Assembly (NCBI GenBank): GCA_040768745.1
Contig: JAXGMI010000001.1
Coordinates: 1,664,001 to 1,728,000 of the forward strand
Length of the DNA stretch: 64,000 nt
Direction of reading: 5' to 3'
DNA from: Desulfomicrobium sp.
GTDB lineage: Bacteria > Desulfobacterota > Desulfovibrionia > Desulfovibrionales > Desulfomicrobiaceae
In this document: piece after piece, positions 1 to 19,043 of the stretch
How positions within the stretch are numbered: position 1 is the stretch's first letter
How the letters are laid out: each line of letters starts with the position of its first letter
Program-made: the position numbers and the translations under genes
The notes under the pieces: model-generated
The model's database searches: none
Told to the model about the DNA's origin: nothing
What the model saw: only the letters and a program-made list of their open reading frames with translations

Positions 1-1272
1 ATTCTGGATTTCGACCGCCAGCACATCTGGCACCCGTATACGTCCATGCGCGACCCCCTGCCCGTGCGCGAGGTAGTCTCCGCGTCTGGTGTGCGTCTGC
101 GCCTTTCCGACGGCCGGGAACTGATCGATGGCATGTCCTCCTGGTGGGCGGCCATCCACGGCTACAACCACCCGGTCCTGAACGCCGCCATAACAAACCA
201 GCTTTCGCGCATGGCCCATGTCATGTTCGGTGGCCTGACGCATGAGCCAGCCGTGGAACTTTGCCGCACCCTTGTGAATATGACCCCTCCCTCTTTGACG
301 AGAGTATTTCTGGCGGATTCGGGTTCTGTGGCCGTGGAAGTGGCCATCAAGATGGCCTTCCAGTTCTGGATCTGTCAGGGCAGGCCGGAAAAGAGCAGAC
401 TTTTGACCATTCGCGGGGGGTACCACGGCGACACCTTCGCGGCCATGAGCGTGTGCGATCCGGTCAACGGTATGCATGAAATTTTTGCCAATGTCCTGCC
501 CCGGCATTATTTCCTCCCCCGTCCGCGCTGCCGGTTTGGAGAGGATTGGGACGAGGCGGACGCTGCTCCCGTGCGCGATGTCCTGGAGCGCCACCACCGG
601 GAAATCGCGGCTGTCATCCTGGAACCCGTGGTGCAGGGCGCGGGAGGGATGCACTTCTATCATCCCATGTACTTGAAGAGAGTACGTGAATTGTGTGACG
701 CATTCGACGTGCTGCTCATCGCCGACGAGATCGCCACCGGCTTCGGGCGCACGGGTAAGCTCTTCGCCTGCGAGCATGCCGAGATCAGTCCAGACATATT
801 GTGCCTGGGCAAGGCATTGACAGGCGGATATATGACCCTGGCCGCGACCCTGGCCACGGATCGCGTGGCCGAGGGGGTGTGCGCGGGTCGACCCGGGGTG
901 TTCATGCATGGTCCCACGTTTATGGCCAACCCCTTGGCCTGCGCCGTGGCCAGGTCCTCATTGGAGGTGCTGGTTAAAAACAATTGGGCCGCGCAATCGG
1001 CCAGGATCGAGGCTTTGCTCAACCAAGGTCTTGATCCGTGCCGAAAATTGCCATATGTGTATAATGTACGAGTCCTCGGATCCATAGGGGTAGTGGAGCT
1101 CCGGGAGCCCGTACAGATGGCCGAAATTCAGACCGCTTTTATCGAAGAGGGCGTCTGGGTTCGTCCCTTTGGCCGTTTGGTGTACGTGATGCCTCCATAC
1201 ATCATGGAAGACCAGGACCTGGCCGTTTTGACCAAATCCTTGGTTCGGGTGGTGGAAGTGCATTGCAGTTGA
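1..1272 (+). CDS. bioA: Adenosylmethionine-8-amino-7-oxononanoate aminotransferase (5' end lies before the window)
   Basis: Frame open from base 1 ([16 protein letters not shown]); BioA motifs [27 protein letters not shown] lysine in [21 protein letters not shown]. Confidence 0.96.
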
Positions 1273-1340
1273 TGTTCTCCTCCCCCGTCCACAAACGACC
1301 GGTTGTCGCTGTGGGCGGCAGCCCAAAAGGAGAACATCGG

Positions 1341-2786
1341 ATGCAAAAAAATTACGCGTGGCTGTTCTGCCTGGCCGCCATTGGCCTGGGATTTTTCGGC
1401 GCGTTGCCCGATGCCTTGGCCGCAGACGGGGACCTGCATCATGAGGCCGAGGAAATCGGAAAGCACCTGGGCGTGATGTGGGTGGTGCCCTTCGCATGCA
1501 TGCTCCTGTCCATCGCCATTATGCCCCTGGCCATTCCCCACTTCTGGCATCATCACTACGGCAAGGTCTCCGCGTTCTGGGGTCTGGCCTTTCTGGTGCC
1601 CTTCGCCCTGGTCCACGGGCTCGATCTGGCCTTCTATTCCGTAGTGCACACCCTGTTGCTGGAGTATATCTCCTTCATTGTCCTGCTCTTTTCGCTGTTC
1701 ACCATTGCCGGTGGGGTGTGCCTGCGCGGGTCCCTGGTGGGCAAGCCTGTGGTCAACACGGTCATCCTGCTGATCGGGACCCTGCTGGCCAGTTGGATGG
1801 GGACCACCGGCGCGGCCATGCTGCTCATCCGGCCGCTCATGCGGGCCATCTCGCACCGCAAGTACAAGGTGCACACCATCGTCTTCTTCATCTTCCTGGT
1901 GGCCAACATCGGCGGCAGCCTGACTCCCCTGGGCGACCCCCCGCTGTTTCTGGGCTTCCTGAAGGGTGTGTCCTTTTTCTGGACCACGATCCACATGCTC
2001 ATCCCCTTCGCGGTCCTCTCGGCCATCCTGCTGGGCCTGTATTTTGCCATCGACACCTACCTGTTCAACAAGGAAGGCCGCCCCGAGTCCCCTGACGCAG
2101 GACAGGATGGACGCCTGCGTCTGGAAGGAACCCACAACCTGCTCCTGCTGGGCGGCGTGATCGCCGGCGTGCTCATGAGCGGCATGTGGAAGCCCAAGGG
2201 AGGGATGACAATCTATCACGTGCACGTCGAGCTGCAGAACATCGTGCGCGACATCCTGCTCCTGGTCCTGGCCGCCGTGAGCCTCAAGACCACGGCCGCG
2301 GAGATCCGGCGCCGAAACGAGTTCGACTGGGAGCCCATCCGCGAGGTGGCCAAGCTTTTCGCCGGCATCTTCATCTCCATGATTCCGGCCATCTCCATCC
2401 TGCGCGCGGGCATGGACGGCGCCCTGCGCGGCGTCATCTCCATGGTCAAGACAGCCGACGGCCTGGACAATCACACCATGTACTTCTGGCTGTCCGGCGG
2501 TCTTTCGAGTTTCCTGGACAACGCCCCAACCTATCTGGTCTTCTTCAACACCGCCGGCGGCGACCCGCAACGGCTCATGAGCGAGGTCGGCACGCTGCTG
2601 GCCATCTCGGCGGGCGCGGTGTTCATGGGCGCCAACACGTACATCGGCAACGCTCCGAACTTCATGGTCCGGTCCATAGCCGAGTCCGGCGGGATCAAGA
2701 TGCCCAGCTTCTTCGGGTACATGGCCTGGTCCGTGGGCATCCTGGTGCCGTGCTTCGTGCTCATGAACATCCTCTTCTTCCACTAA
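1341..2786 (+). CDS. Ion-transporter (ArsB/NhaD-like) superfamily sodium:proton antiporter-like permease, copy 1
   Basis: Many TM helices; ANIGGSLTPLGDPPL, LSSFLDNAPTY and YIGNAPN motifs; AGGAGA RBS before ATG 1341. Confidence 0.85.
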   Translation: MQKNYAWLFCLAAIGLGFFGALPDALAADGDLHHEAEEIGKHLGVMWVVPFACMLLSIAIMPLAIPHFWHHHYGKVSAFWGLAFLVPFALVHGLDLAFYSVVHTLLLEYISFIVLLFSLFTIAGGVCLRGSLVGKPVVNTVILLIGTLLASWMGTTGAAMLLIRPLMRAISHRKYKVHTIVFFIFLVANIGGSLTPLGDPPLFLGFLKGVSFFWTTIHMLIPFAVLSAILLGLYFAIDTYLFNKEGRPESPDAGQDGRLRLEGTHNLLLLGGVIAGVLMSGMWKPKGGMTIYHVHVELQNIVRDILLLVLAAVSLKTTAAEIRRRNEFDWEPIREVAKLFAGIFISMIPAISILRAGMDGALRGVISMVKTADGLDNHTMYFWLSGGLSSFLDNAPTYLVFFNTAGGDPQRLMSEVGTLLAISAGAVFMGANTYIGNAPNFMVRSIAESGGIKMPSFFGYMAWSVGILVPCFVLMNILFFH

Positions 2787-2826
2787 ATCGAAAGCAGGGC
2801 GGCTCTGCCGCCATGGAGGAACGACC

Positions 2827-3291
2827 ATGATAAAGGTAGAAAAAGTGCTTATCCCGGTGGACGGGTCCGATTCGTCCAGGAATGCGACCAAGTACGGCGC
2901 GCACCTAGTCAATTCCAGAGACCCGAAGATCTACCTGCTGAACGTCACGGAGCCGGTGAACATGACCATCGGCGGAGAGATGGCCGAGCGGGTGCGCAAG
3001 GCGGCCGAGGCCAAATCCCTGGCCCTTCTGGAGGAATACAAGAAACTGCTCGAGCCCTGCGGTATGGACGTGGAACTCATCTCGCGCAGCGGCCGTCCGG
3101 ACTACGTGATTCTGAACGTCCAGGACGAGCTGGACTGCGACCTCATCGTCATCGGCTCCCGCGGCCTCTCTGTCCTGGAGAACGTGATCATGGGCAGCGT
3201 GGTCACCCGCGTGCTGGAAGGGGCGACCTGTCCGGTGCTGGTCACCCGCAACCTCAGGCTGAAGTATCTGCAGGACGCCTGCGGACTCTGA
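2827..3291 (+). CDS. Universal stress protein (UspA family), copy 1
   Basis: VLIPVDGS N-terminus; DLIVIGSRG...MGSV and CPVLV motifs; GGAGG RBS. Confidence 0.93.
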   Translation: MIKVEKVLIPVDGSDSSRNATKYGAHLVNSRDPKIYLLNVTEPVNMTIGGEMAERVRKAAEAKSLALLEEYKKLLEPCGMDVELISRSGRPDYVILNVQDELDCDLIVIGSRGLSVLENVIMGSVVTRVLEGATCPVLVTRNLRLKYLQDACGL

Positions 3292-3316
3292 TTTCGCTTC
3301 GAGGGAATGCATTACG

Positions 3317-3348
3317 GGTCGGCCTCCGTAAGGGGGCCGGCCTTTTTT
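3317..3348 (+). terminator. Rho-independent terminator after USP copy 1
   Basis: GGTCGGCCTCC-GTAA-GGGGGCCGGCC stem followed by TTTTTT. Confidence 0.85.
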
Positions 3349-3761
3349 CATCATTCCCCGGTTTCTTGGAAAGAATGGAATGGTTCCAGGCGCATGGGGA
3401 TGTTTTTTTCCTGCTTGTCTGGATTTGTGATGCATCGTCCGCAGGGCGCGACTGACAGGGTCTTGCTCGAGGCTCTTGCTCCAATCGATGATATGTTATA
3501 TTCGGCTCGCCGTGAGCGTGCTGGGTTCCATGGCCATCGTTTTTTGACGCCAGTGCGCAGGACAGATCCGGAAGCCCCTTGCAAAGTTGCATCCGGATTC
3601 GCCCTCGGGAAGTTGGCAGGAATGATGTCATCACATCATCATGGGCCAGATCTGTTTTTTGTCAGGGTGTCGAGAGATGGGCTGGGCGCCGGTCACGATG
3701 CCTTCAACGTTCATGTGAATGGTGCGTCGCGCCAAGCGGCGGCCCAAAAGGAGAACATGGG

Positions 3762-5201
3762 ATGCGAAAGAGTTCTGTCTGGTTTGTTTGCCTGGCGGTC
3801 ATTGGTCTGGGTGTGTTCGGCATGTTGCCCGATGTCTGGGCCTCGGGAGGGGATCTCCATCACCAAGCCGAGGAAATCGGCAAACATTTGGGTGGGCTGT
3901 GGGTTGTGCCCTTTGCCTGTATGCTTCTCTCCATTGCCATCATGCCCCTGGCCATGCCCCATTTCTGGCACCATCATTATGGCAAGGTGGCAGCATTCTG
4001 GGGGCTGGCATACCTGATACCCTTTGCCATTAGCCACGGGTTCGATCTAGCGCTGTATCAAGTTGCGCACACTATGTTCCTGGAATACTTTTCTTTTTTA
4101 ATTCTGCTCTTTTCACTTTTCACCATCGCCGGCGGCGTGTGCCTGCGCGGATCCCTGGTAGGCAAACCGCAGGTCAACACCGCCATTCTGCTGATTGGCA
4201 CCCTGCTGGCCAGCTGGATGGGGACCACCGGTGCGGCCATGCTGCTCATCCGGCCGCTGATGAGAGCCATCTCCCACCGCAAATACAAGATTCACACCAT
4301 CGTCTTTTTCATCTTCCTGGTGGCCAATGTCGGCGGCAGCCTGACGCCCCTTGGCGACCCGCCACTGTTTCTCGGCTTCCTGAAGGGCGTGTCCTTCTTC
4401 TGGACCACCGTGCATCTTTTTATGCCCTTTGCAGTTGTTTCTGGCATCCTTTTGGCCATTTACTTTGTTATTGACACGGTCCTCTTCAATAAGGAAGGCC
4501 GGCCCGAATCCCCGGATGCGGGCAAGGACGGTAAGCTGCGCCTGGAAGGCTCCCACAACTTGCTCCTGCTGGCCGGCGTGGTCGGCGGTGTGCTCATGAG
4601 CGGCATGTGGAAGCCAGAAGGTGGATTCAGCATTTATCATGTGCATGTGGAGCTCCAGAATGTCGTGCGTGACATCCTGCTTCTTGTCCTGGCCGCCATC
4701 AGCCTGAAGACCACTTCCACAGAGATCCGACGTCGCAATGAATTTGAATGGGAGCCAATCCGTGAAGTGGCCAAGCTGTTCTTGGGCATTTTCATTTCCA
4801 TGATCCCGGCGATAGCCATTCTCCGTGCGGGAGAGGAAGGTGCTCTGCGCAGTCTCATCGCCCTGGTCTCGACCAACGGCGTACCCAACAACGCCATGTA
4901 TTTCTGGCTGACCGGAGCTTTGTCGAGTTTCCTGGACAACGCCCCGACCTACCTGGTGTTCTTCAACACTGCTGGCGGTGATGCGAACGCTCTGATGAAT
5001 CAGGTACCGACGCTCATGGCCATTTCTGCTGGTGCGGTGTTCATGGGTGCCAACACGTATATCGGCAACGCTCCGAACTTCATGGTCCGGTCCATAGCCG
5101 AGTCAGGCGGGATCAAGATGCCCAGTTTCTTCGGGTACATGGCCTGGTCAGTGGGCATCCTCATTCCGTGCTTCATACTGACGACCCTGCTCTTTTTCTA
5201 A
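3762..5201 (+). CDS. Ion-transporter superfamily sodium:proton antiporter-like permease, copy 2
   Basis: Paralog of 1341..2786 with the same motifs; same AAAAGGAGAACAT RBS context before ATG 3762. Confidence 0.85.
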   Translation: MRKSSVWFVCLAVIGLGVFGMLPDVWASGGDLHHQAEEIGKHLGGLWVVPFACMLLSIAIMPLAMPHFWHHHYGKVAAFWGLAYLIPFAISHGFDLALYQVAHTMFLEYFSFLILLFSLFTIAGGVCLRGSLVGKPQVNTAILLIGTLLASWMGTTGAAMLLIRPLMRAISHRKYKIHTIVFFIFLVANVGGSLTPLGDPPLFLGFLKGVSFFWTTVHLFMPFAVVSGILLAIYFVIDTVLFNKEGRPESPDAGKDGKLRLEGSHNLLLLAGVVGGVLMSGMWKPEGGFSIYHVHVELQNVVRDILLLVLAAISLKTTSTEIRRRNEFEWEPIREVAKLFLGIFISMIPAIAILRAGEEGALRSLIALVSTNGVPNNAMYFWLTGALSSFLDNAPTYLVFFNTAGGDANALMNQVPTLMAISAGAVFMGANTYIGNAPNFMVRSIAESGGIKMPSFFGYMAWSVGILIPCFILTTLLFF

Positions 5202-5243
5202 TCGCGAGCAAATGGGCGGGCTCACCGCCAGGGAGAAAATCTG

Positions 5244-5708
5244 ATGATCAAGATTGAACGTGTGTTGATACCCGTGGACGGGTCCGATTCGTCCAGGAAT
5301 GCGGCCAAGTACGGGACCCAGCTGGTCAATGCCCGCAACCCCAAGATATACCTGCTGAACGTCTGGGAACCGGTCAACATGACCATCGGCGGGGAGATGG
5401 CCGAAAAACTGCGGCAGAACGCCGAGGCCAAATCCATGGCCATGCTGCAGGAATACAAGAAACTGCTCGAACCCTGCGGCATGGAAATAGAACTCATTTC
5501 CCGCAGCGGCCGTCCGGACTACGTGATTCTGAACGTCCAGGACGAACTGGAGTGCGATCTCATAGTCATCGGTTCACGGGGCCTTTCGGTCCTGGAGAAC
5601 GTGATCATGGGCAGCGTGGTCACGCGGGTGTTGGAAGGAGCCAGCTGTCCTGTGCTGGTGACGCGCAACCTGCGGTTCAAGTACCTGCAGGACGCCTGCG
5701 GAATCTGA
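5244..5708 (+). CDS. Universal stress protein (UspA family), copy 2
   Basis: 154-aa close paralog of 2827..3291. Confidence 0.93.
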   Translation: MIKIERVLIPVDGSDSSRNAAKYGTQLVNARNPKIYLLNVWEPVNMTIGGEMAEKLRQNAEAKSMAMLQEYKKLLEPCGMEIELISRSGRPDYVILNVQDELECDLIVIGSRGLSVLENVIMGSVVTRVLEGASCPVLVTRNLRFKYLQDACGI

Positions 5709-5732: not shown

Positions 5733-5763
5733 AAAGCCGGCTCCTGGTGGGGCCGGCTTTTTT
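5733..5763 (+). terminator. Rho-independent terminator, probably bidirectional
   Basis: AAAGCCGGCTCC-TGGT-GGGGCCGGCTTT plus T run, between convergent genes. Confidence 0.8.
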
Positions 5764-7121
5764 CATCTGGTGGTCAGGCCATGTTTTTTCAGACGGTACT
5801 GCAGGGTGCGGCGGCTGATGCCCAGGGCCTGGGCCGTACGCTCGCGGTGCCCATGGCATTTGCGCAGAGTCTCCTCCAGCGCCTGGCGTTCGGCGAGTTC
5901 CAGTGGACTGTTCAGAACATGGAGACTGGGCTCAAGCAACGGTCTTTCTTTGTGTTGGAGGTGCTCTGGCAGATCACGCAGATCCAGGATGTCCCCTCGG
6001 CAGAGAATCAAGGATCGCTCCAGCACGTTTTCCAGCTCCCGCACGTTCCCACGCCATTCATGGCGGCCGAGGGCATCAAGGAATTCTCTGGATACCGATC
6101 GGATGGGTTTACTGTTTTTACGACCCAGCTTGGCAAGGAGAAAATCAACCAGCAAGGGGATGTCCTCCGGGCGTTCGCGCAGGGGGGGGATGCGTATTTC
6201 GAGGACGTTCAGACGGTAATACAGGTCTTCCCGGAATGTGCCTGCGGCAATCATGGCCGGCAGGTCACGGTTGGTGGCGGCAATGAAGCGCACGTCAACA
6301 TTGACCGGGGCCACGCCCCCCAGAGGCTCTACAATCCGTTCCTGCAGGGCTCGCAGGATTTTGGCCTGCAGGGTCAGGGGCAGTTCGCCGATTTCGTCCA
6401 GGAAAAGGGTCCCTCCGCTGGCCAACTGAAAGCGACCGGGTTTGTCCTGGGCCGCTCCGGTGAAGGCTCCGCGGATGTAGCCAAACAGTTCGCTCTCCAG
6501 CAGGCTTTCTGGCAGGGCTGCACAGTTGACCTTGATGAGCGGACCTTTGGCGCGCAAGCTGCGATCATGCAGGAGCTGGGCAGCCAGTTCCTTGCCTGTG
6601 CCGGATTCGCCGAGGATCAGGACATTGGCCTCGCTCGGTCCGACCTGTTCAATGAGCTCTACGACCCGGCGGATGGCTGCGCTGTCCCCGATAATGCGGG
6701 TTTCGCGCATCTGACCGATCTGCTTTTTCAATTCCCGGTTTTCCAAAGCCAGGCGGGAGTGCTCCACGGCTTTCTGGATCACAGCCAAAAGCTCGTCGTT
6801 GTCAGCAGGCTTGGTCAGGTAATGAAAAGCCCCGCTCTTCATGGCTTCCACCGCGCTGCCCACATTGCCAAAGGCAGTGAGCATGATCACCGGCGGAAAG
6901 GTTCCTTGTTCCTGGAGCCGCTGCAGCACCTCCAGGCCGTTCATGCCCGGCATGCGCATGTCGAGCAGAATGGCGTCAACCTGCTTGCTTCGCAGCAGAT
7001 TCAGACCCGTGGATCCGTTGTCGGCTTCGAGGACTTTGAACCCCGCATCACCCAGGACAACGCGGACCATGAGTCGGTGGGCTGGTTCATCGTCAATGAT
7101 CAGGACTGTGTGTTGCGTCAT
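5763..7121 (-). CDS. Sigma54-dependent response regulator, ZraR/HydG-like (REC-AAA-Fis HTH)
   Basis: IIDDE and LLDMRMPG receiver; GESGTGKE, GAFTGA, LFLDEIGE; C-terminal LGISRRTL HTH. Confidence 0.9.
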   Translation of the reverse strand: MTQHTVLIIDDEPAHRLMVRVVLGDAGFKVLEADNGSTGLNLLRSKQVDAILLDMRMPGMNGLEVLQRLQEQGTFPPVIMLTAFGNVGSAVEAMKSGAFHYLTKPADNDELLAVIQKAVEHSRLALENRELKKQIGQMRETRIIGDSAAIRRVVELIEQVGPSEANVLILGESGTGKELAAQLLHDRSLRAKGPLIKVNCAALPESLLESELFGYIRGAFTGAAQDKPGRFQLASGGTLFLDEIGELPLTLQAKILRALQERIVEPLGGVAPVNVDVRFIAATNRDLPAMIAAGTFREDLYYRLNVLEIRIPPLRERPEDIPLLVDFLLAKLGRKNSKPIRSVSREFLDALGRHEWRGNVRELENVLERSLILCRGDILDLRDLPEHLQHKERPLLEPSLHVLNSPLELAERQALEETLRKCHGHRERTAQALGISRRTLQYRLKKHGLTTR

Positions 7122-8809
7122 GCCAGGTTCTCGGCAGGTTGAGGGAAGAAGAGGGAAACAGTCGTTCCCTGGTTTGGGGTTGATGCAATGGACACTGAAC
7201 CGCCATGCTCCTGCATGATGCCGTGGACAATAGCGAGGCCTAAACCCGTTCCGTGATCACGAGTGGTGAAAAAGGGTTCCAGGGCGTGTTCCTGTTCTGC
7301 AGGGGTCATGCCGCGACCATTGTCCTGAACCCGAATCCACACACCGTGGGCACCAGACTCGCTGGTCAGCCGGATCAAGCCCCCAGCCTTCGGGATGGCT
7401 TCCAGGCTGTTTACGATCAGGTTGATAAGGGCCTGCTTGAGTGCATCACGGTCTGCATGCAGCGATCCTGCCTCCAGGTTTTCCTCCAGGCGGCATTGTT
7501 TGGTCTCCAGGTCCATACCCAGAAGGGTGCGCAATTCCCGGAGAATATCCGAAAGAGTGAGGAAGTTACAAGACAATTGGCGGGGCTTGGCCAGGAAAAG
7601 GAGGTCCGTGATGACTCGATTCAGGCGGTCAGCCTCCTGAACCATAGTCCGGGCGTAGAGCTCTTCCGGGTCTCGGCCGGCCAGTTTCTTGGAGAAGAAT
7701 TGGGCGAACCCCCGCAATGCCGAGAGGGGGTTGCGGATCTCGTGGGCCACTCCCGCGGCCATGCGGCCGATGGCGGCCAGTTTTTCATTGCGATGCAGCT
7801 CCTGCTCCAGACCGGCCAACTCGGTCCGGTCGCGGATGAGGATGAGCCCTTGCCCGGAACCGTCCTTGAGCGGAAGACGGAGGATCTCCAAGTTCTTGCC
7901 CGCTGTCGTGCATGTGCTCCACTCCTGTTCTCCTTGTGGGGGAAGGTTCAGTCCCAAGGAGCAGAAAAGGCGGGCAAAGGGCTGTCCGATGACATCCTGT
8001 CCCTCCAGAAGCATCAAGGCCGCAGGATTGGCAGCCATGACAGTGCCGTCAGCGGAAATGGTCAGCAGGCCGTCGGGCATGTTGTCCAGGAGACGGGCGT
8101 TGAAGGATTCCAGACGCTGCAATCGTCGGCCCTGGTCCTTTCGCTGCATGAAGCTCATGAACAGAATCCAGAACACAATGGTCACAGCCAAAATATAGCC
8201 GGTTTGCAGGATGGCTGTGCGCTTGTACTTGCTGAATGAGGCGAGATGTTGGGTCATATCCACGCCAATGAGCAGCAGTGGAGGCTGGCTGTCCGGTGGA
8301 CATTGGCCATCCGTGCATTGGCCGCCCACGGCCAAGTGGCTGATCCGACCCAGAACCAAGATGGGCTGACCTTCGAAATTCATCTCCCCGCTCCATTCCC
8401 CTGCATTGCCCATGCGTTCCCAGGCGATGGTTGGCAACTGAAGTTGAATGGATCTGGGATCGTTGTGCGAGGAAAAGAGGATGTGCCCCAGGGGATTGAA
8501 GAGGCCGATAAACCGGGCGTCGGTACGGGTGATGTATTCCTGCAGGAGGTCTTTGATCTGGTTCCGATGCATGAGCAGAGCCGCGTGGGAATGTGCCGCC
8601 GCAGCGGGCAGGTGCAGTTCCCGGCGCAGGTTGATCTCCATCCCGGCAGCGATAGAACGGGCGGTAACGAGGGCGTGTTCGCGAAAGGAGTCCTGCTGCT
8701 GACGCAAATTACGCCAGGTGGAGAAGCTGAGAGCTATGCCCAGGACAAATACGGCCAACGTGGCGACCAAGATCGTCGGGCCGCTTCGATCAGGAATGAC
8801 GACATCCAT
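7118..8809 (-). CDS. Membrane sensor histidine kinase, ZraS-like
   Basis: Two TM segments, PAS-like region, H-box AHEIRNPL, DNGRG and GTGLGL; overlaps the regulator start; start placed at MDVVIP. Confidence 0.88.
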   Translation of the reverse strand: MDVVIPDRSGPTILVATLAVFVLGIALSFSTWRNLRQQQDSFREHALVTARSIAAGMEINLRRELHLPAAAAHSHAALLMHRNQIKDLLQEYITRTDARFIGLFNPLGHILFSSHNDPRSIQLQLPTIAWERMGNAGEWSGEMNFEGQPILVLGRISHLAVGGQCTDGQCPPDSQPPLLLIGVDMTQHLASFSKYKRTAILQTGYILAVTIVFWILFMSFMQRKDQGRRLQRLESFNARLLDNMPDGLLTISADGTVMAANPAALMLLEGQDVIGQPFARLFCSLGLNLPPQGEQEWSTCTTAGKNLEILRLPLKDGSGQGLILIRDRTELAGLEQELHRNEKLAAIGRMAAGVAHEIRNPLSALRGFAQFFSKKLAGRDPEELYARTMVQEADRLNRVITDLLFLAKPRQLSCNFLTLSDILRELRTLLGMDLETKQCRLEENLEAGSLHADRDALKQALINLIVNSLEAIPKAGGLIRLTSESGAHGVWIRVQDNGRGMTPAEQEHALEPFFTTRDHGTGLGLAIVHGIMQEHGGSVSIASTPNQGTTVSLFFPQPAENLA

Positions 8810-8825
8810 GCCGGCCTCGTTGAGC

Positions 8826-8858
8826 AAAAGGGCAAAGGCCGCCGGAGCGGCCTTTGCC
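8826..8858 (-). terminator. Terminator between the zraP-like gene and the kinase
   Basis: 12-bp stem GGCAAAGGCCGC-TCCG-GCGGCCTTTGCC followed by CTTTT on the minus strand. Confidence 0.75.
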
Positions 8859-8884
8859 TGTGCAAGGGAGGGGGAGAGAGGGAT

Positions 8885-9358
8885 TTACGTTCTTGAAGCG
8901 GACGGGCAACACGGGGCGGAACTGGTGCCGTTGCCAGCACCACTGGAGGTTGCTCTGCATTGTGGCCGTGGTCCGCAGCCTCTGCCGGATTCAAAAAGAA
9001 CAGGTTTCCCGGTGATCTCGGACAACTCCAGGCGGTAGTCGGCATTGAGCTTGTTCTTGTTCGCCTGCAGCTCGTTCACCTCGGCCATGATCTTGTCCAG
9101 GGACTTTTGGTCCACAGGTGTGCTGGCAAAGAGGTTTTCCATAGCCTGGTGCTTGGCGCTGAGCTCTTTGTGCAGGGCAAAAAGCCGTTCATGGTGAATG
9201 TCCGTGGCCTTCCGAACTTTTTCTTGCTGTTCCGGAGTCAGGCTGGACATGAAGTCCTGGTAGTGTCCCTGTCCCGGACAGCCGCCCTGGAAGGCCTGAG
9301 CTCCGGCTACAAGGGCCAGGGTCAGAACGAGGGCGGGTATGAGGTTCCTGAGGTACAT
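8885..9358 (-). CDS. Periplasmic ZraP/Spy/CpxP-family heavy-metal sensor or chaperone
   Basis: Signal peptide ending AQA; LTPEQQ motif; helical core; upstream of the ZraS/R-like pair; AGGAG RBS. Confidence 0.8.
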   Translation of the reverse strand: MYLRNLIPALVLTLALVAGAQAFQGGCPGQGHYQDFMSSLTPEQQEKVRKATDIHHERLFALHKELSAKHQAMENLFASTPVDQKSLDKIMAEVNELQANKNKLNADYRLELSEITGKPVLFESGRGCGPRPQCRATSSGAGNGTSSAPCCPSASRT

Positions 9359-9417
9359 GTGAGCTCCTGTCAATCACTTTGGAGAGAGGTTGTGTGCCTT
9401 TTGTTCATCACAGTTAT

Positions 9418-9434
9418 AGCATGCTCCATGCCAA
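9418..9434 (-). promoter_or_regulatory. Sigma54 -24/-12 promoter of the zraP-like gene
   Basis: Minus strand TTGGCATGGAGCATGCT with exact GG-N10-GC spacing, about 60 nt before the ATG. Confidence 0.85.
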
Positions 9435-9450
9435 TTTTTTCTATATTTTA

Positions 9451-9465
9451 TTTCAACGTGTTGAA
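9451..9465. promoter_or_regulatory. Putative IHF site
   Basis: TTTCAACGTGTTG resembles WATCAANNNNTTR, next to an AT tract, between the sigma54 promoter and the putative UAS. Confidence 0.5.
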
Positions 9466-9494
9466 TCTTGATTGAGCTGCGACGCATGGATTTA

Positions 9495-9541
9495 TGTGCT
9501 ATTTTTTGCACATATTTCCGGATTGTGCAAGAGCGTGCGTC
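9495..9541. promoter_or_regulatory. Two putative enhancer-binding-protein sites (UAS)
   Basis: TGTGCTATTTTTTGCACA (9495-9512) and TGTGCAAGAGCGTGCGTC (9524-9541), NtrC-family-like dyads upstream of the sigma54 promoter. Confidence 0.6.
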
Positions 9542-9625
9542 CACCCAGCCTTGCCTTTCCGGGGGAAAGTTTATAATCTTAAAAAATTATGTTCGGCGTC
9601 TGCAAGCAGGCGCGAGGAGGCTCAG

Positions 9626-9793
9626 ATGTGCAAGGGATGCGGATGTCTGCGAGGCAAGACCACGGTCAAGGAAGTTCATCACGACCACGAACACAGCCAT
9701 GGGGATCTGACCCACAGTCACCCCCACGATCACGACCATGACCACACGCATGATGAAAACAGGCCTGTAGCGCACGAAGACCACAAGCATTGA
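9626..9793 (+). CDS. 55-aa Cys/His-rich metal-binding micro-protein (MCKGCGC, 15 His)
   Basis: Strong GAGGAGG RBS; MCKGCGCLRG...HHDHEHSHGDLTHSHPHDHDHDHTH...HEDHKH. Confidence 0.8.
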   Translation: MCKGCGCLRGKTTVKEVHHDHEHSHGDLTHSHPHDHDHDHTHDENRPVAHEDHKH

Positions 9794-9844
9794 TTTGGTG
9801 GGGGGCTGCCCTCAAGGGCAGCCCGAGCTGTGGAGGACCGTCCC

Positions 9845-10249
9845 ATGACCAAGACGGGAATGATTGTGCTTGGGCACGGCAGCAGGCGCAGAGAAGTGGC
9901 GTCATCTTTCGAGGCCCTGGTCGGACGGGTGGCGGCCAGGGTGTCCGGAGCGCCGGTGCTTCCGGCTTTTTTCTCCTTAGGAGAACCGACCTTGGCCGAT
10001 CAGGTCCGAAAACTGACAGCTCAAGGGTGCAGTCGAATCGTCATCATGCAGTATTTTCTCTATAACGGGGTGCATATCGAGCACGATATCCCCAAAATGA
10101 TAGAGGGCCTCAAAGAAGAATTTCCCGGTGTTGCATTCGTGATTCAGCCAACGCTGGAAAACGACCCGGCCATGGAACAGCTGCTGGTGGAGAGACTGCT
10201 GACGGCCATGGACATGCAGGAGGAGAGCAGCCCTCCAGTGAAGACATAG
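9845..10249 (+). CDS. cbiX: Short-form sirohydrochlorin chelatase (CbiX/SirB family)
   Basis: LGHGSR and YNGVHIEHDIP catalytic His motifs, EPTL; 134-aa single domain; GGAGG RBS. Confidence 0.88.
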   Translation: MTKTGMIVLGHGSRRREVASSFEALVGRVAARVSGAPVLPAFFSLGEPTLADQVRKLTAQGCSRIVIMQYFLYNGVHIEHDIPKMIEGLKEEFPGVAFVIQPTLENDPAMEQLLVERLLTAMDMQEESSPPVKT

Positions 10250-10390
10250 CCAGCGCAGAAGGCTAAAGCCAGCGCAGAAGGCTAAAGCCAGCGCAGAAGG
10301 CTAAAGCCAGCGCAGAAGGCTAAAGCCAGCGCAGAAGGCTAAAGCCAGCGCAGAAGGCTAAAGCCAGCGCAGAAGGCTAAAGCCAGCGCA
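10248..10390. repeat. Perfect 19-bp tandem repeat, 7 full copies plus a 10-nt partial
   Basis: Unit AGCCAGCGCAGAAGGCTAA at 10248, 10267, 10286, 10305, 10324, 10343, 10362 and partial at 10381; no spacers. Confidence 0.98.
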
Positions 10391-10394
10391 TACG

Positions 10395-10583
10395 TTATTT
10401 TTCGAGCACGGCGGCCTTGACCGCCTCAATCCCCACCCTGGCCACAAACTTGGCCGTACGCTCCTTTTTCTTGGCATTTTCTTTGTAGAAGGCCAGCAAC
10501 TTTCTAACCAATCCCAGGGTCTCATCCCTGTTCAGATTCGTGGCCAGGAGGTCGGCCACCCTGGCCTGGGCCCCTGCATTCAT
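10395..10583 (-). pseudogene. C-terminal fragment of a nitrite/sulfite reductase-family protein (remnant or mini-protein)
   Basis: NAGAQARVADLLATNL...LLAFYKENAKKKERTAKFVARVGIEAVKAAVL resembles the NIR_SIR C-terminus; Cys ligands and N-terminal domains are absent. Confidence 0.55.
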
Positions 10584-10719
10584 ATCCTCTGCATTTGTGG
10601 TTTGAACATTGACGCAGACCGTCTCATGCATTGAGACTGCCCTCGGGGGGTGCGCTGTGACATTGGCGGCCTCATCGCATGGCACAGGGCCTGACACAGT
10701 CTTTCCCGTCTGGCCCAGC

Positions 10720-10762
10720 ACAAGAACGGCAAATGCCTCGTGAGTGCATATGCCGTTCTTGT
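10720..10762 (-). terminator. Long inverted repeat downstream of putA
   Basis: ACAAGAACGGCA...TGCCGTTCTTGT 12-bp arms with further internal pairing. Confidence 0.55.
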
Positions 10763-14553: not shown

Positions 14554-15222
14554 TCAGCCGAGGACTGCTGTCTTGAAGGCCTGATGGCGGGTGGAATAGG
14601 GCGGATAACCAAAAAAGGCGGAGCCGGACACGAGCACGTCCGCACCAAGCTCGGAGAGTTCCCGGGCATTTTCCAGGGTCACTCCTCCATCGACCTGGAC
14701 AAGGGTGCTGAGGTTTCTGGCTTTGATCATCGCGGACACGTCTTTGATCTTGTCCTTGCAGAAGGGAATGAAGGATTGCCCTCCGAATCCAGGGTTGACG
14801 GTCATGATCAGAACCATGTCCAGCTGGGGCAAAACATAGTCAACAACGGCCAGGGGCGTGGCGGGGTTGAGAGACAGGCCGACGCGCATGCCCGCCTCAC
14901 GGATGGCGCTCAACGAGCGTTCGAGATGTATGGTGCTTTCAGCGTGGATGCACAGCAGATCTGCTCCGGCTCCGGCGAAGTCGTTGATGTACCGTTCCGG
15001 CCGTTCAATCATCAGGTGAACGTCGAAAAAGAGGCTGGAGGTCCTGCGCAGGGCTTTGATCACCGGAGGGCCGAAGGTGATATTGGGCACGAAGGCTCCG
15101 TCCATGACATCCCAGTGCACCCACTGCAGACCCGCCTTTTCCAGTGCCTCCAACTCAGCCTGCAGGTTGCCGAAATCCGAGGACAGAAGGGACGGAGACA
15201 GGATGAATTCCCTGGCCATCAT
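14554..15222 (-). CDS. rpe: Ribulose-phosphate 3-epimerase
   Basis: SPSLLSSDF, HWDVMDG.FVPNITFG, DVHLM, MTVNPGFGGQ, VDGG. Confidence 0.96.
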   Translation of the reverse strand: MMAREFILSPSLLSSDFGNLQAELEALEKAGLQWVHWDVMDGAFVPNITFGPPVIKALRRTSSLFFDVHLMIERPERYINDFAGAGADLLCIHAESTIHLERSLSAIREAGMRVGLSLNPATPLAVVDYVLPQLDMVLIMTVNPGFGGQSFIPFCKDKIKDVSAMIKARNLSTLVQVDGGVTLENARELSELGADVLVSGSAFFGYPPYSTRHQAFKTAVLG

Positions 15223-15671
15223 TCCTCTCCCATTTTGAAATCGACCTGGATTTTGAACATCTTGGTCGCCGGCAGGTTCAAGATGGGCACCCCGGTCTTG
15301 CTGGTCACTTCAGCCAGAGTCGCCTGCACCTCTTCCCAGGATGGGGCTATGAAGGTGAACCATACGTTCTGACGATGAGCCCGCAGGTAGTTATGGGTCA
15401 CGCCCGGAAGACGGTTCACTTCAGCGATGAACGTGTCCAGCTTTTCGTCCGGCACGGCGGCCGAGCAGAGGGTTGAACGCCAGCCGAGCTTTCCGGACTG
15501 GAAATTGGCTCCGATGCGGCGGATGACCCCTTTTTCCGTCAAGGTCCGCACCCGGGCCAGGGTTTCAGCCTCGGTCAGTCCGACTTGGCGGCCTATTTCT
15601 GAGTAGGGGCGCTTCTCCAGGGGAAAAGCGGTCTGGATGATGTCCAGTATTTTTTTGTCGAAGTTGTCCAT
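15219..15671 (-). CDS. ahbA: Siroheme decarboxylase subunit alpha (NirD/L-like)
   Basis: IQTAFPLEKRPY, IRRIGANF, GVTHNYLR, NVWFT; in the ahb cluster. Confidence 0.9.
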   Translation of the reverse strand: MDNFDKKILDIIQTAFPLEKRPYSEIGRQVGLTEAETLARVRTLTEKGVIRRIGANFQSGKLGWRSTLCSAAVPDEKLDTFIAEVNRLPGVTHNYLRAHRQNVWFTFIAPSWEEVQATLAEVTSKTGVPILNLPATKMFKIQVDFKMGEE

Positions 15672-15683
15672 CGGCGCCCCGGA

Positions 15684-16862
15684 TCAGGGTTTTTGCTGGC
15701 CTGCGAGTTTGGGGGTGTAGGAGCAGAGGGGTTCCTCGCCCATGTAATTGTGGTCCATGGAATGGGCCCTGGCCCGGCATCCGCCGCAAACCTTATGATA
15801 TTCGCAGATCCCGCATTTGCCTTCGTACTCGTCCTGATTGCGGAACTGCTTGAACTGTTTGGAGCTTTTCCAGATTTCGGGGAAGCGGGTTGTGCGCACG
15901 TTGCCGCAGTCCAGCTCCAGGTAACCGCATGGCTGCACCTGGCCCACGTGGGAAATAAAGCAAAATCCCGTACCGCCCAGACAGCCCCTGGTCATGGCGT
16001 CCAGCCCGAAGTTTTCCACCGTCACGGGCACGCCCTCTGCCTTGGCCCGCTGGCGCATGATGCGGTAATAGTGCGGGGCACAAGTGGCCTTCAGGTGCAT
16101 CTTCGTGGTCTTGCGGAAGTCGTAGAACCAGTTCAGCACGTCCTCGTACTCCTGGGCCGTGATGACTTCAGCTCCCAGCTGGGCAGCCCGGCCGGTGGGC
16201 ACCAGAAGGAAGATGTGCCAGGCTGCGGCTCCAAGACTTTGGCACAGGTCGAAAATCTGCTTGAAGCTGCCGAGATTCGCCCTGGTTACCGTGGTGTTGA
16301 TCTGGAATTCGATGCCTGCCGCCTTCAAATACCCGATGCCGCGCATGGACGCGTCAAAAGCGCCCTGCACACCCCGGAATTCGTCGTGACTGGCTGCGTC
16401 AGGGCCATCGATGGAGATGGAGCAGCGCTGCACCCCCGCCTCGCGCATCATGGCGCCCGTTTCCGGGGTGATGAGGGTCCCGTTGGGAGACATGACGCAG
16501 CGCAACCCCTTGTCCGTGGCGTAGCGGATCAGTTCGTATACGTCGGGACGCATCATGGGGTCACCGCCAGTGAAGATGATGATGGGGTTGCCCACTTCGG
16601 GGAAGGTGTCGATGAGTGCTTTGGCCTCGACCGTGTCCAGTTCGCCCTCATAGGGCTCGAGGCGGGCTTCGGCCCGGCAGTGCTTGCAGGCCAAGTTGCA
16701 GGATCGGGTCACTTCCCAGGCGATGAGCTTGCATGCCGGAGAGCCGTCGGCCAGGGTTCTGATCATGCCACCGGGATGGCCGCCGGGCTTGGTTCCCGGG
16801 TGAGCTGTTGGATGGGCGCCCAGATTGCCGAGGCCTTTGCCGTGTTGGGTATGGCTGTGCAT
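15684..16862 (-). CDS. ahbD: Heme b synthase (radical SAM/SPASM)
   Basis: AWEVTRSCNLACKHCRA, KATCAPHYYR, GCLGG and SPASM cysteines. Confidence 0.9.
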   Translation of the reverse strand: MHSHTQHGKGLGNLGAHPTAHPGTKPGGHPGGMIRTLADGSPACKLIAWEVTRSCNLACKHCRAEARLEPYEGELDTVEAKALIDTFPEVGNPIIIFTGGDPMMRPDVYELIRYATDKGLRCVMSPNGTLITPETGAMMREAGVQRCSISIDGPDAASHDEFRGVQGAFDASMRGIGYLKAAGIEFQINTTVTRANLGSFKQIFDLCQSLGAAAWHIFLLVPTGRAAQLGAEVITAQEYEDVLNWFYDFRKTTKMHLKATCAPHYYRIMRQRAKAEGVPVTVENFGLDAMTRGCLGGTGFCFISHVGQVQPCGYLELDCGNVRTTRFPEIWKSSKQFKQFRNQDEYEGKCGICEYHKVCGGCRARAHSMDHNYMGEEPLCSYTPKLAGQQKP

Positions 16863-17839
16863 CAGAGATGTCCCGCCTTGAGCAGATCATTGGTGAAGTA
16901 CGAGAGGATCAGGTCGGCCCCGGCTCGTTTAAGGGCCAGGAGGCTTTCCATGGCCACGGCCGTCTCGTCGATCCATCCGTTCATGGCCGCGGCTTTGATC
17001 TGGCTGTATTCCCCACTGACCTGGTACGCGGCGACAGGCAGGTCGAATCTGTCCCGGACCTGCCGAATGATGTCAAGATATGGCAATCCCGGCTTGACCA
17101 TGAGGATGTCCGCTCCTTCGGCCACATCGGCGGCTGCCTCGCGCAGCCCCTCCCGGCCGTTGCCCGGGTCCATCTGGTAGGTCTTGCGGTCCCCGAATTT
17201 GGGGGCGCTTTCTGCGGCGTCCCGGAACGGCCCGTAGAAGGCAGAAGCATACTTGACCGCGTAGGACATGATCGGCGTGTTGAGAAATCCCGCCCCATCC
17301 AGGGCCTGGCGTATGGCCGCCACGCGACCGTCCATCATGTCTGAAGGGGCGATGATATCCGCTCCGGCTTGGGCCTGGGCCACGGCGGTGCGGGCCAGAA
17401 GTTCCAGGGTCGGGTCGTTCTGCACCTCGCCCACTGGGGAGACCAGGCCACAATGCCCGTGGGAGGTGTACTCGCAAAGACATGTGTCAGCCACGACGAT
17501 GAGTTCGGGCCATCTGCCCTTGATCTGACGGATGGCCCGCTGCACGATACCCGCATCAGCGTAGGCCTGGGAACCGGCAGGGTCTTTTTGGACCGGGATG
17601 CCGAAAAGGATGAGACTTTGAAGCCCCGCATGCACCGCTTCGCCGACTTCGGCCATGAGCTGGGACAGGCCCAGCTGGAACTGGCCAGGCATGGAGGCGA
17701 TGGGTTTTCTGAAATCAGGGTCCGACTCCACCACGAAATAGGGCTGGATCAGATCTTCCCTGCCCAACCGGGTCTCGCGGACCATATCCCGCAACGCCTT
17801 GGATGAACGCAGCCGGCGGCCGCGATAGAACGAACGCAT
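16862..17839 (-). CDS. hemB: Porphobilinogen synthase
   Basis: [12 protein letters not shown]n site, [34 protein letters not shown]. Confidence 0.97.
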
Positions 17840-17849
17840 GACGCCCTCC

Positions 17850-19043
17850 CTAGATCGGCTCGCCGCTGATTTCCTCGTCCGTCAGGTAGCAGGCCGGATC
17901 GTGGGCCCAGAAATCATCATAAAAAGCTTCGGCCCGGGCCCGGAAATTGCCGCCGCAGATGTTCAGGAACCGGCAGGTGGCACATCGCCCCTTCACGTGC
18001 GGCCGCTTGTCCTTCAGTTTGTGCAGCAGTTCTATGCCCTCGTCCATCCAGATCTCGGAGAAGGGGCGCTGGAGTACGTTCCCGAAGGTGTGATGGCGCA
18101 TGAACTGGTCCGCGTGCACCGAGCCGTCCCAGGAAATACACCCGATGCCCCGGCCGGAGGAGTTGCCCTCATTCATTTTGAGGAGTTCCAGTACTTCAGC
18201 CGCGCGCTTGGGATCCTCCTTCAAAAGACGATAGTATACGTAAGGCCCGTCGGCGTGGTTGTCCACGGTCAGAACTTCCTTGGGCAGGCCTCTGTCGTGC
18301 AGGTCCCGGGTCCGGTCCATGATCAGGTCCACTACAGCCCTGGTTTCGGCATGATCCAGGTCTTCTTTGATCAGCTCAGAGCCGCGACCAGAATACACCA
18401 GATGGTAAAAACAGATTCTCGGCACGTTCATGGTCTCGATCAGATTGAAGAGGTGGGGGATCTCGGCGGCGTTTCTTTTGTTGATGGTGAAGCGCAATCC
18501 GACCTTGAGTCCCTCGGCCTGGCAGTTCTCCACGCCCTTCAAGGCCTGTCTGTAGGATCCGGAAACCCCTCGGAATTGGTCATGCACAGTCTCGGCGCCG
18601 TCCAGGGAGATGCCGACATAGGACAGCCCGACTTCTTTGAGTTCCCGGGCCTTGGCCTTGGTGATGAGGGTGCCATTGGTGGAGATGACGGCGCGCATGC
18701 CCTTGGATGTAGCGTATTTGGCCAGTTCGACCAGATCTTCGCGGACCAGGGGCTCGCCGCCGGAGAAAAGCATGACCGGCGCCCCAAATCGGGCCAGGTC
18801 GTCGATGATGGTCTTGGCCTGATCCGTGGAAATGGGATCCTTATGGCTGCTCGGCTCCACGGCGTGGGCGTAGCAGTGCACGCATTTCAGGTTGCAGCGC
18901 TGGGTCATGTTCCAGACCACAACGGGTTTCTTGTCTTTGGCGAATTGCAGCAGATGGGAGGGAAGCTGGGAGGAGTGGCGCCCGTAGCGCAGGGCATCGG
19001 ATGGTTCCACAGTGCCGCAGTACAATTTCGAGATACCGATCAT
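17850..19043 (-). CDS. ahbC: 12,18-didecarboxysiroheme deacetylase (radical SAM)
   Basis: [43 protein letters not shown]. Confidence 0.92.

Follow-up and report, generated by a model that had tools for sequence, protein, structure and literature searches.

A conserved stand-alone peptide resembling the HypB N-terminal tip, encoded upstream of a short CbiX chelatase in Desulfomicrobium

A 55-aa frame at 9626..9793 on the forward strand of the window, by which we mean the whole 64,000-nt stretch of Desulfomicrobium sp. DNA that was analysed, is a real, conserved and stand-alone protein-coding gene, the product of which begins MCKGCGC, is rich in histidine and resembles the N-terminal tip of HypB. 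On balance, we lean towards the view, drawn from sequence comparison, that this peptide is a detached HypB tip-like module serving as a free store of metal in the cytoplasm, with nickel the likeliest ion, and not a subunit of the CbiX chelatase encoded downstream. By the tests made, the peptide family belongs to neither the HypB nor the Hpn family, and it is apparently undescribed, as a search of the open-access literature found no published description.

The small gene and its expression signals

The frame runs from an ATG at 9626 to a stop at 9793, encodes 15 His, 3 Cys and 11 Asp/Glu, and is preceded by the ribosome-binding site GAGGAGG (9614..9620, +), 5 nt before the ATG. An automated ORF track begins the peptide at 9494 to give 99 aa. 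This start is wrong, because an in-frame stop lies fewer than 44 codons upstream of the MC in 13 of 26 loci and an RBS-like purine run precedes the MC in all 26. In loci of equal length (n = 21), third codon positions vary in 53 of 56 cases, compared with 18 first and 24 second positions; since the variation is mostly synonymous, the frame is coding and not a chance occurrence. C2, C5, C7 and nine His are invariant across 30 aligned peptides, and one family peptide has CxxCAC in place of CxxCGC. The earlier note had described a 55-aa MCKGCGC frame with 15 His and a strong RBS, mis-started at 9494 by the ORF track; both points are borne out, and the frame is not the broken piece of a longer local gene that the note had considered. 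A search for longer homologues (8000 candidates scored), which is weak evidence by itself, recovered two copies with a wrong start, together with one HypB at E=1e-3.

Protein collections frequently lack the small gene or give it a wrong start. Seven of 16 near database matches are 70-94 aa long, the four of these that were read carrying an upstream extension, and the exact peptides of relatives were absent from a collection of 15 billion proteins in nine of nine cases, the window's own peptide being present. No Pfam family matched the peptide, and its ESM Atlas matches were unnamed clusters only. AlphaFold2, run on the 30-sequence peptide alignment, returned a model with a pLDDT of 58.5, a pTM of 0.13 and no secondary structure.

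A candidate sigma-70-type promoter (TTGCCT, 15 nt, TATAAT; 9551..9577, +) lies in a block conserved in the genus. A sigma-70 consensus scan found no sites, because it demands a spacer of 16-18 nt. Between the two genes, a 9-bp GC hairpin (9803..9824, +) lacks a T-run in the window and is terminator-like in most relatives. A spacer hairpin of at most -12 kcal/mol is present in 26/26 adjacent loci, and at least five T within the following 8 nt in 22 of them; of the four loci that fail the T-run test, three fold the T-run into the stem, which leaves the window alone without one. A hairpin also follows the peptide gene in 23 of 32 non-adjacent loci.

RNA-library sequences bearing on this region came, all as contigs, from four runs of three studies among 19 runs listed; the runs were chosen for containing the window sequence, and contigs cannot rank genes. 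The peptide gene is covered partly or wholly in all four runs, and bases 9425-9601 in none. Contigs from two different studies span 9602-9830 and 9603-9799 and stop short of cbiX; their starts at 9602 and 9603 are a weak hint for the candidate promoter. Two contigs of one study (9688-10277 and 9688-9996) cross the spacer, which does not show a single transcript. As the runs were selected by the presence of the window sequence, the contigs give only a weak hint of a short peptide transcript plus read-through into cbiX.

The CbiX chelatase and its linkage to the peptide

The downstream gene, cbiX (9845..10249, +), starts 51 nt after the small-gene stop behind the RBS GGAGG (9832-9836, +) and encodes a short, single-domain class II sirohydrochlorin chelatase of 134 aa. 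It scores 85.1 bits against PF01903 (cut-off 22) and is the only PF01903 match in the window genome. Its His residues are found only at 11, 77 and 80, so that the earlier description of a chelatase without a His-rich segment of its own is accurate; His11 and His77 are invariant in 30 CbiX sequences and align with His of solved SirB. The nearest solved structures are SirB and CfbA/CbiX-S.

The chelated metal cannot be read from the structure of a chelatase, according to PMC7689651. The earlier note had drawn a nickel lead from CfbA, which turned out to be weak: the window CbiX scores 59.2 bits against the CfbA model NF033198, below the cut-off of 120, and relatives carry a CbiX domain fused to CbiC inside a cobalamin operon (cbiA-cbiD-cbiG), a fusion that points to cobalt as the metal of CbiX. 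The window genome contains one CbiK, located in the cobalamin cluster and bearing an N-terminus that looks by eye like a signal peptide, as well as one CbiC and one CysG N-terminal match, and an alternative heme cluster (AhbC, HemB-like by eye, AhbD and AhbA; 15219-19043, -) lies 5-9 kb from cbiX. On the basis of these genes and of the CbiC fusions, the window CbiX may be a cytoplasmic Co and/or Fe chelatase. A perfect tandem repeat (10248-10390, 19 bp x 7.5 copies, 100% matches) begins at the cbiX stop codon. Beyond it, a 108-aa frame (10395-10721, -), the C-terminal half of which resembles a nitrite/sulfite reductase 4Fe-4S domain at 26.1 bits, just under the cut-off, is probably a gene remnant.

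A search of 61 genomes found CbiX in 24/24 congeners and 31/34 family members, and full-length matches (51-97 bits) were confined to three families of the order. The peptide is directly upstream of cbiX in 26 of the 30 best loci, namely 25/25 of the genus and one of a sister genus (G027); because these genomes are kin and not independent, the 26 adjacencies should be weighed as roughly a single event. Distances were tabulated for the window genome and for 22 genomes outside the genus, where the two genes are adjacent in one, 1.7-6.6 kb apart in six, 32 kb apart in one, 1.4 Mb apart in one and on different contigs in ten, three having no CbiX. In all six near-linked genomes peptide and cbiX are separated by an Fe-S gene on the opposite strand, and a search of the window genome for this gene at E<=1e-30 found none. 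In most of the near-linked genomes queA is located divergently upstream, and in the window genome it lies ~9.7 kb upstream. Because of the intervening opposite-strand gene in related genera, the genus-wide adjacency may be a relic of deletion. An old synteny tightened by loss of intervening genes is the simplest history, and the long linkage also fits a functional tie.

Each gene also occurs without the other. In 22 peptide-bearing genomes that are 93-100% complete, there is either no CbiX match or, in most, only one with E>=4e-7, these weak matches being, as we read them, cross-matches of CbiK; two more peptide-bearing genomes without CbiX are 77% and 82% complete. Conversely, CbiX occurs without a peptide detectable by profile or pattern in 14 genomes, nine of them at least 90% complete. 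At 34 other family loci, none of the chosen ORFs scanned (119/190 plus 47/92 candidates) matched CbiX. Since most other lineages keep the peptide away from cbiX, it is probably not a dedicated chelatase partner. The two-part peptide-CbiX system of the earlier note is only partly supported: the pair is conserved throughout the genus and in G027, but the evidence does not support such a system as the main function; the genomes with one gene alone, the distances of 32 kb and 1.4 Mb and the hairpin all weigh against it.

Likeness to HypB and spread of the family

A pattern built from the peptide and scanned over 185,579 genomes gave 72 loci, comprising 44 HypB N-termini, 26 stand-alone family peptides and two cut by contig ends. 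In the residues that follow the patterned stretch, 16 of the 44 HypB N-termini read HG[DE]xxH[STAV]H[PAS]H like the peptide, and three HypB tips carry the exact 10-residue stretch of the window peptide. In 301 genomes of the phylum of G301, 11/11 pattern matches are HypB fusions; outside the order, the motif was found only as a HypB N-terminus. The HypB-like character claimed for the stand-alone peptide is upheld. Against the NCBIfam model NF053667 (HypB_prefix_1), the window peptide scores 21.6 bits, below the cut-off of 30; 18 of 29 peptides match this model at E<=0.05 and none of the 29 reaches the cut-off. Because His-rich tracts are low in complexity, the likeness to HypB tips may be partly convergent. 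One 400-aa HypB (P0019) carries an N-terminal extension that repeats the peptide-like His motif four times.

The hypB of the window genome is a separate short gene (G000:C2). Among 30 chosen genomes of the order (20 peptide-bearing and 10 peptide-free) plus the window genome, the best HypB copy is without CxxCGC and His tract in 31/31; three second copies are present, and the one that was read is also short. HypB is short with or without the peptide, so the order gives no signal of complementarity between peptide and HypB tip. In a quick tree, the short HypB of the order form one side of a branch with an SH-aLRT of 92. This would fit a fission of HypB, in a tree that is unrooted and whose prefix-bearing rows were chosen by pattern, which biases the sampling. 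The peptide lies near hypB in one of 34 other loci examined (2.3 kb, G069).

Within the order Desulfovibrionales, a 15-row peptide profile found matches in 53 of 301 genomes, including 32/34 of the peptide's own family, 13/27 of family f3, 1/9 of f5, 5/194 of f6 and 1/1 of f8. The f8 match (G041) was left out of further counts, being a 124-aa repeat protein without an MCxxCGC start; this protein (L099 1127-1498, -) carries a pair of CxxC motifs and, after them, the His hairpin-like motif of the peptide twice. An MCxxCGC DNA pattern gave 169 matches in 133/301 genomes of the order. Forty of these were chosen by hand, of which 17 are further stand-alone proteins (72-136 aa, 20-60 His, clear RBS) and 23 were rejected as not being family members; there were no HypB fusions among the 40. 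Stand-alone relatives of 53-136 aa are present in at least 68 of the 301 genomes, and in most genomes of the order no peptide was detected. Searched against 1.84 billion representative proteins, the profile gave 20 matches; the weakest ten (nine read) include one HypB N-terminus and two proteins that look like truncated HypB N-termini.

Several family members stand in settings of their own. In G205 a 98-aa member (L118 3747-4040, -) precedes a same-strand [FeFe]-hydrogenase operon by 400 bp, in G146 (L110) a member stands between hydF and a family-5 ABC transporter, and G299 (L098, L117) has two members of different subtype, of 61 and 98 aa, the shorter directly upstream of a ZIP gene. In genus g38 (L102-L105, L107), MCKYCGC frames of 13-18 codons are conserved in five genomes without a clear RBS; they probably belong to the frame of a different gene or match out of frame.

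A free metal store, its rivals and known systems

If the peptide is a free metal store, then, once Met is removed, a single Ni(II) would be held tightly by Cys2, Cys5, Cys7 and the amine of the N-terminus, in the manner of E. coli HypB, whose Ni(S)3NH2 site is likewise formed by three Cys plus the terminal amine (PMC7055735). The HxHxH tracts would hold several further ions weakly, as His tracts of rhizobial HypB bind several Ni and also Zn, Co and Cu (PMC7055735), and the metal-free peptide would probably be unstructured. A short separate transcript would encode the peptide, and cbiX would be reached by transcription reading through the hairpin. From the store, metal would pass to the HypA/HypB-dependent maturation of [NiFe] and [NiFeSe] hydrogenases, and the pool would limit free-metal toxicity; CbiX likely loads sirohydrochlorin with Co or Fe independently of the peptide. 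The window genome encodes large subunits of the [NiFe] and [NiFeSe] types as well as NikR and CbiM. Two hydrogenase large-subunit genes lie at G000:C1:86425-93039, one with an in-frame TGA as expected for [NiFeSe]. No NikR or Zur box was found within three mismatches at 9370-9630 (consensus from PMC545781).

As to neighbours, a metal-transport-type gene adjoins the peptide at 13 of 34 other family loci and none does at 21, among the ORFs scanned and as raw counts. They comprise CDF (three), ZIP, periplasmic binding proteins (three), CbiQ, TonB plug or FmdE (three), a family-5 ABC binding protein and DUF4198. The neighbours of the peptide (CDF, ZIP, CbiQ, zraP) point as much to Zn or Co as to Ni. 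In the window, the block 5763..9358 (-), divergent from the peptide gene, consists of a zraP-like gene (8885-9358; PF13801, 71 bits), a sensor kinase gene (7118-8827) and a sigma-54 response regulator gene (5763-7121). The zraP-like product scores 26.6 bits with the ZraP model, far below the cut-off of 200, and the name zraSR for the kinase and regulator pair would follow from gene order. A sigma-54-like site (9419-9433) lies upstream of the zraP-like gene block. Two TGTGCA-N6-TGCACA-like palindromes, 29 bp apart (9495..9541; one and three mismatches), are likely binding sites of the neighbouring sigma-54 activator; such palindromes are seen by eye in most genus loci, and 16 such sites exist genome-wide at <=1 mismatch. 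Farther away, 1263-5708 (+) holds two tandem paralogous pairs of a CitMHS_2-type transporter (the first confirmed) and a 154-aa protein that looks by eye like a universal stress protein.

We rank the free metal store ahead of a zinc-stress sink and both ahead of a dedicated CbiX partner. It is unlikely, yet worth weighing, that the peptide is a sink for zinc or heavy metals in general, induced by metal stress as the cytoplasmic counterpart of the divergently encoded ZraP. The divergent zraP-like gene and two-component pair, with zra genes upstream in most genus loci and in G027, speak for this, as do the putative activator sites ending ~10 bp before the candidate -35 of the peptide gene; CDF exporters adjoin the peptide in G092, G098 and G101, a ZIP gene is directly downstream in G299, and Cys3 plus a His tract could bind Zn. 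However, the zra neighbourhood is confined to two genera, queA being the older neighbour, the 21 loci without a metal-transport neighbour do not show such a setting, and the strict position of the N-terminal Cys motif fits an amine-dependent Ni site. Least probable by a wide measure is a leader peptide, the product of which would be irrelevant and in which attenuation would control cbiX read-through. There is indeed a His-rich ORF with a terminator-like hairpin between it and the next gene, but the amino acids of the ORF, including the three Cys, are conserved under synonymous change, the next gene is on the opposite strand in many loci, the His codons alternate rather than stand in tandem, the hairpin sits after the stop codon, and an Rfam scan gave no riboswitch and one match only, at chance level (E=0.55, below the gathering score).

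Somewhat less probable than the zinc sink is the proposal that the genus peptide is a dedicated in-trans metal donor to the short CbiX, of Co or Fe rather than Ni, rebuilding the layout of CbiX-L. Besides the adjacency in 25/25 genus genomes and G027, it can draw on same-strand linkage at 1.7-6.6 kb in six more genomes of two families, on the RNA contigs of one study that bridge the spacer without showing a single transcript, on the proposal that the His-rich tail of CbiX-L stores and delivers metal (PMC7689651) and on the co-purification of M. maripaludis HypB with CbiX/CfbA (PMC13202556). Against it stand the 22 peptide-bearing genomes without full-length CbiX and the 14 with CbiX and no detected peptide, the Fe-S gene intervening in the six near-linked genomes, with queA retained ~9.7 kb upstream in the window layout, and the terminator-like hairpin. 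Moreover, deletion of the CbiX-L tail leaves cobalt insertion unaffected (PMC7689651), and PMC10206600 describes the early cobalt route as independent of metallochaperones. The peptide may serve another chelatase in the 22 CbiX-less genomes, whose weak matches are read as CbiK. A bolder scheme, to which we give the same low credence as to the dedicated donor, is that Desulfovibrionales split HypB and that the free tip was recruited in one genus as an in-trans Co/Fe donor for a minimal CbiX; if true, a route believed to run without a chaperone would have one that needs no GTP and that directs sirohydrochlorin to B12 or to siroheme/heme.

The free metal store remains our preferred reading. Long HypB proteins (E. 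coli with CxxCGC, rhizobial with CxxCGC plus His) share with the peptide Cys 2, 5 and 7 after Met and the His-rich tract; unlike them, the peptide has no GTPase domain, and its gene is distinct from hypB and lies on a different contig. The role of the HypB N-terminal site and His tract is described as unsettled in PMC7055735, and the peptide would be a natural construct in which a HypB-tip-like module is under selection without the GTPase attached. The tail of B. megaterium CbiX-L, the parallel drawn by the earlier note, likewise is a His-rich segment associated with a sirohydrochlorin chelatase, but the parallel is loose: the tail is in cis, C-terminal and dispensable for cobalt insertion, and the MxCxxC motif is a 4Fe-4S site (PMC7689651), whereas the window peptide is encoded by a separate upstream gene and has MCxxCGC. 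The chelatase itself shares with CbiX-S a single domain of 120-145 aa (134 here) and both catalytic-type His (His10/His74 in A. fulgidus, His11/His77 here); it is bacterial, whereas CbiX-S is generally archaeal (PMC7689651), and it differs from CfbA in falling below the cut-off of the F430 nickel chelatase model.

Hpn and Hpn-2 of Helicobacter are tiny, His-rich and stand-alone like the peptide, and Hpn is its most likely functional analogue. Hpn has His runs and internal Cys pairs, not an N-terminal CxxCGC with alternating His. It sequesters nickel and interacts with HypAB (PMC4671568), and it is reported only from gastric Helicobacter, whereas the peptide comes from Desulfovibrionales. The best-known stand-alone His-rich nickel stores are those of gastric Helicobacter; a further family of this kind in hydrogenase-rich sulfate reducers, with the build of the HypB tip, if true, would add a missing piece of metal handling.
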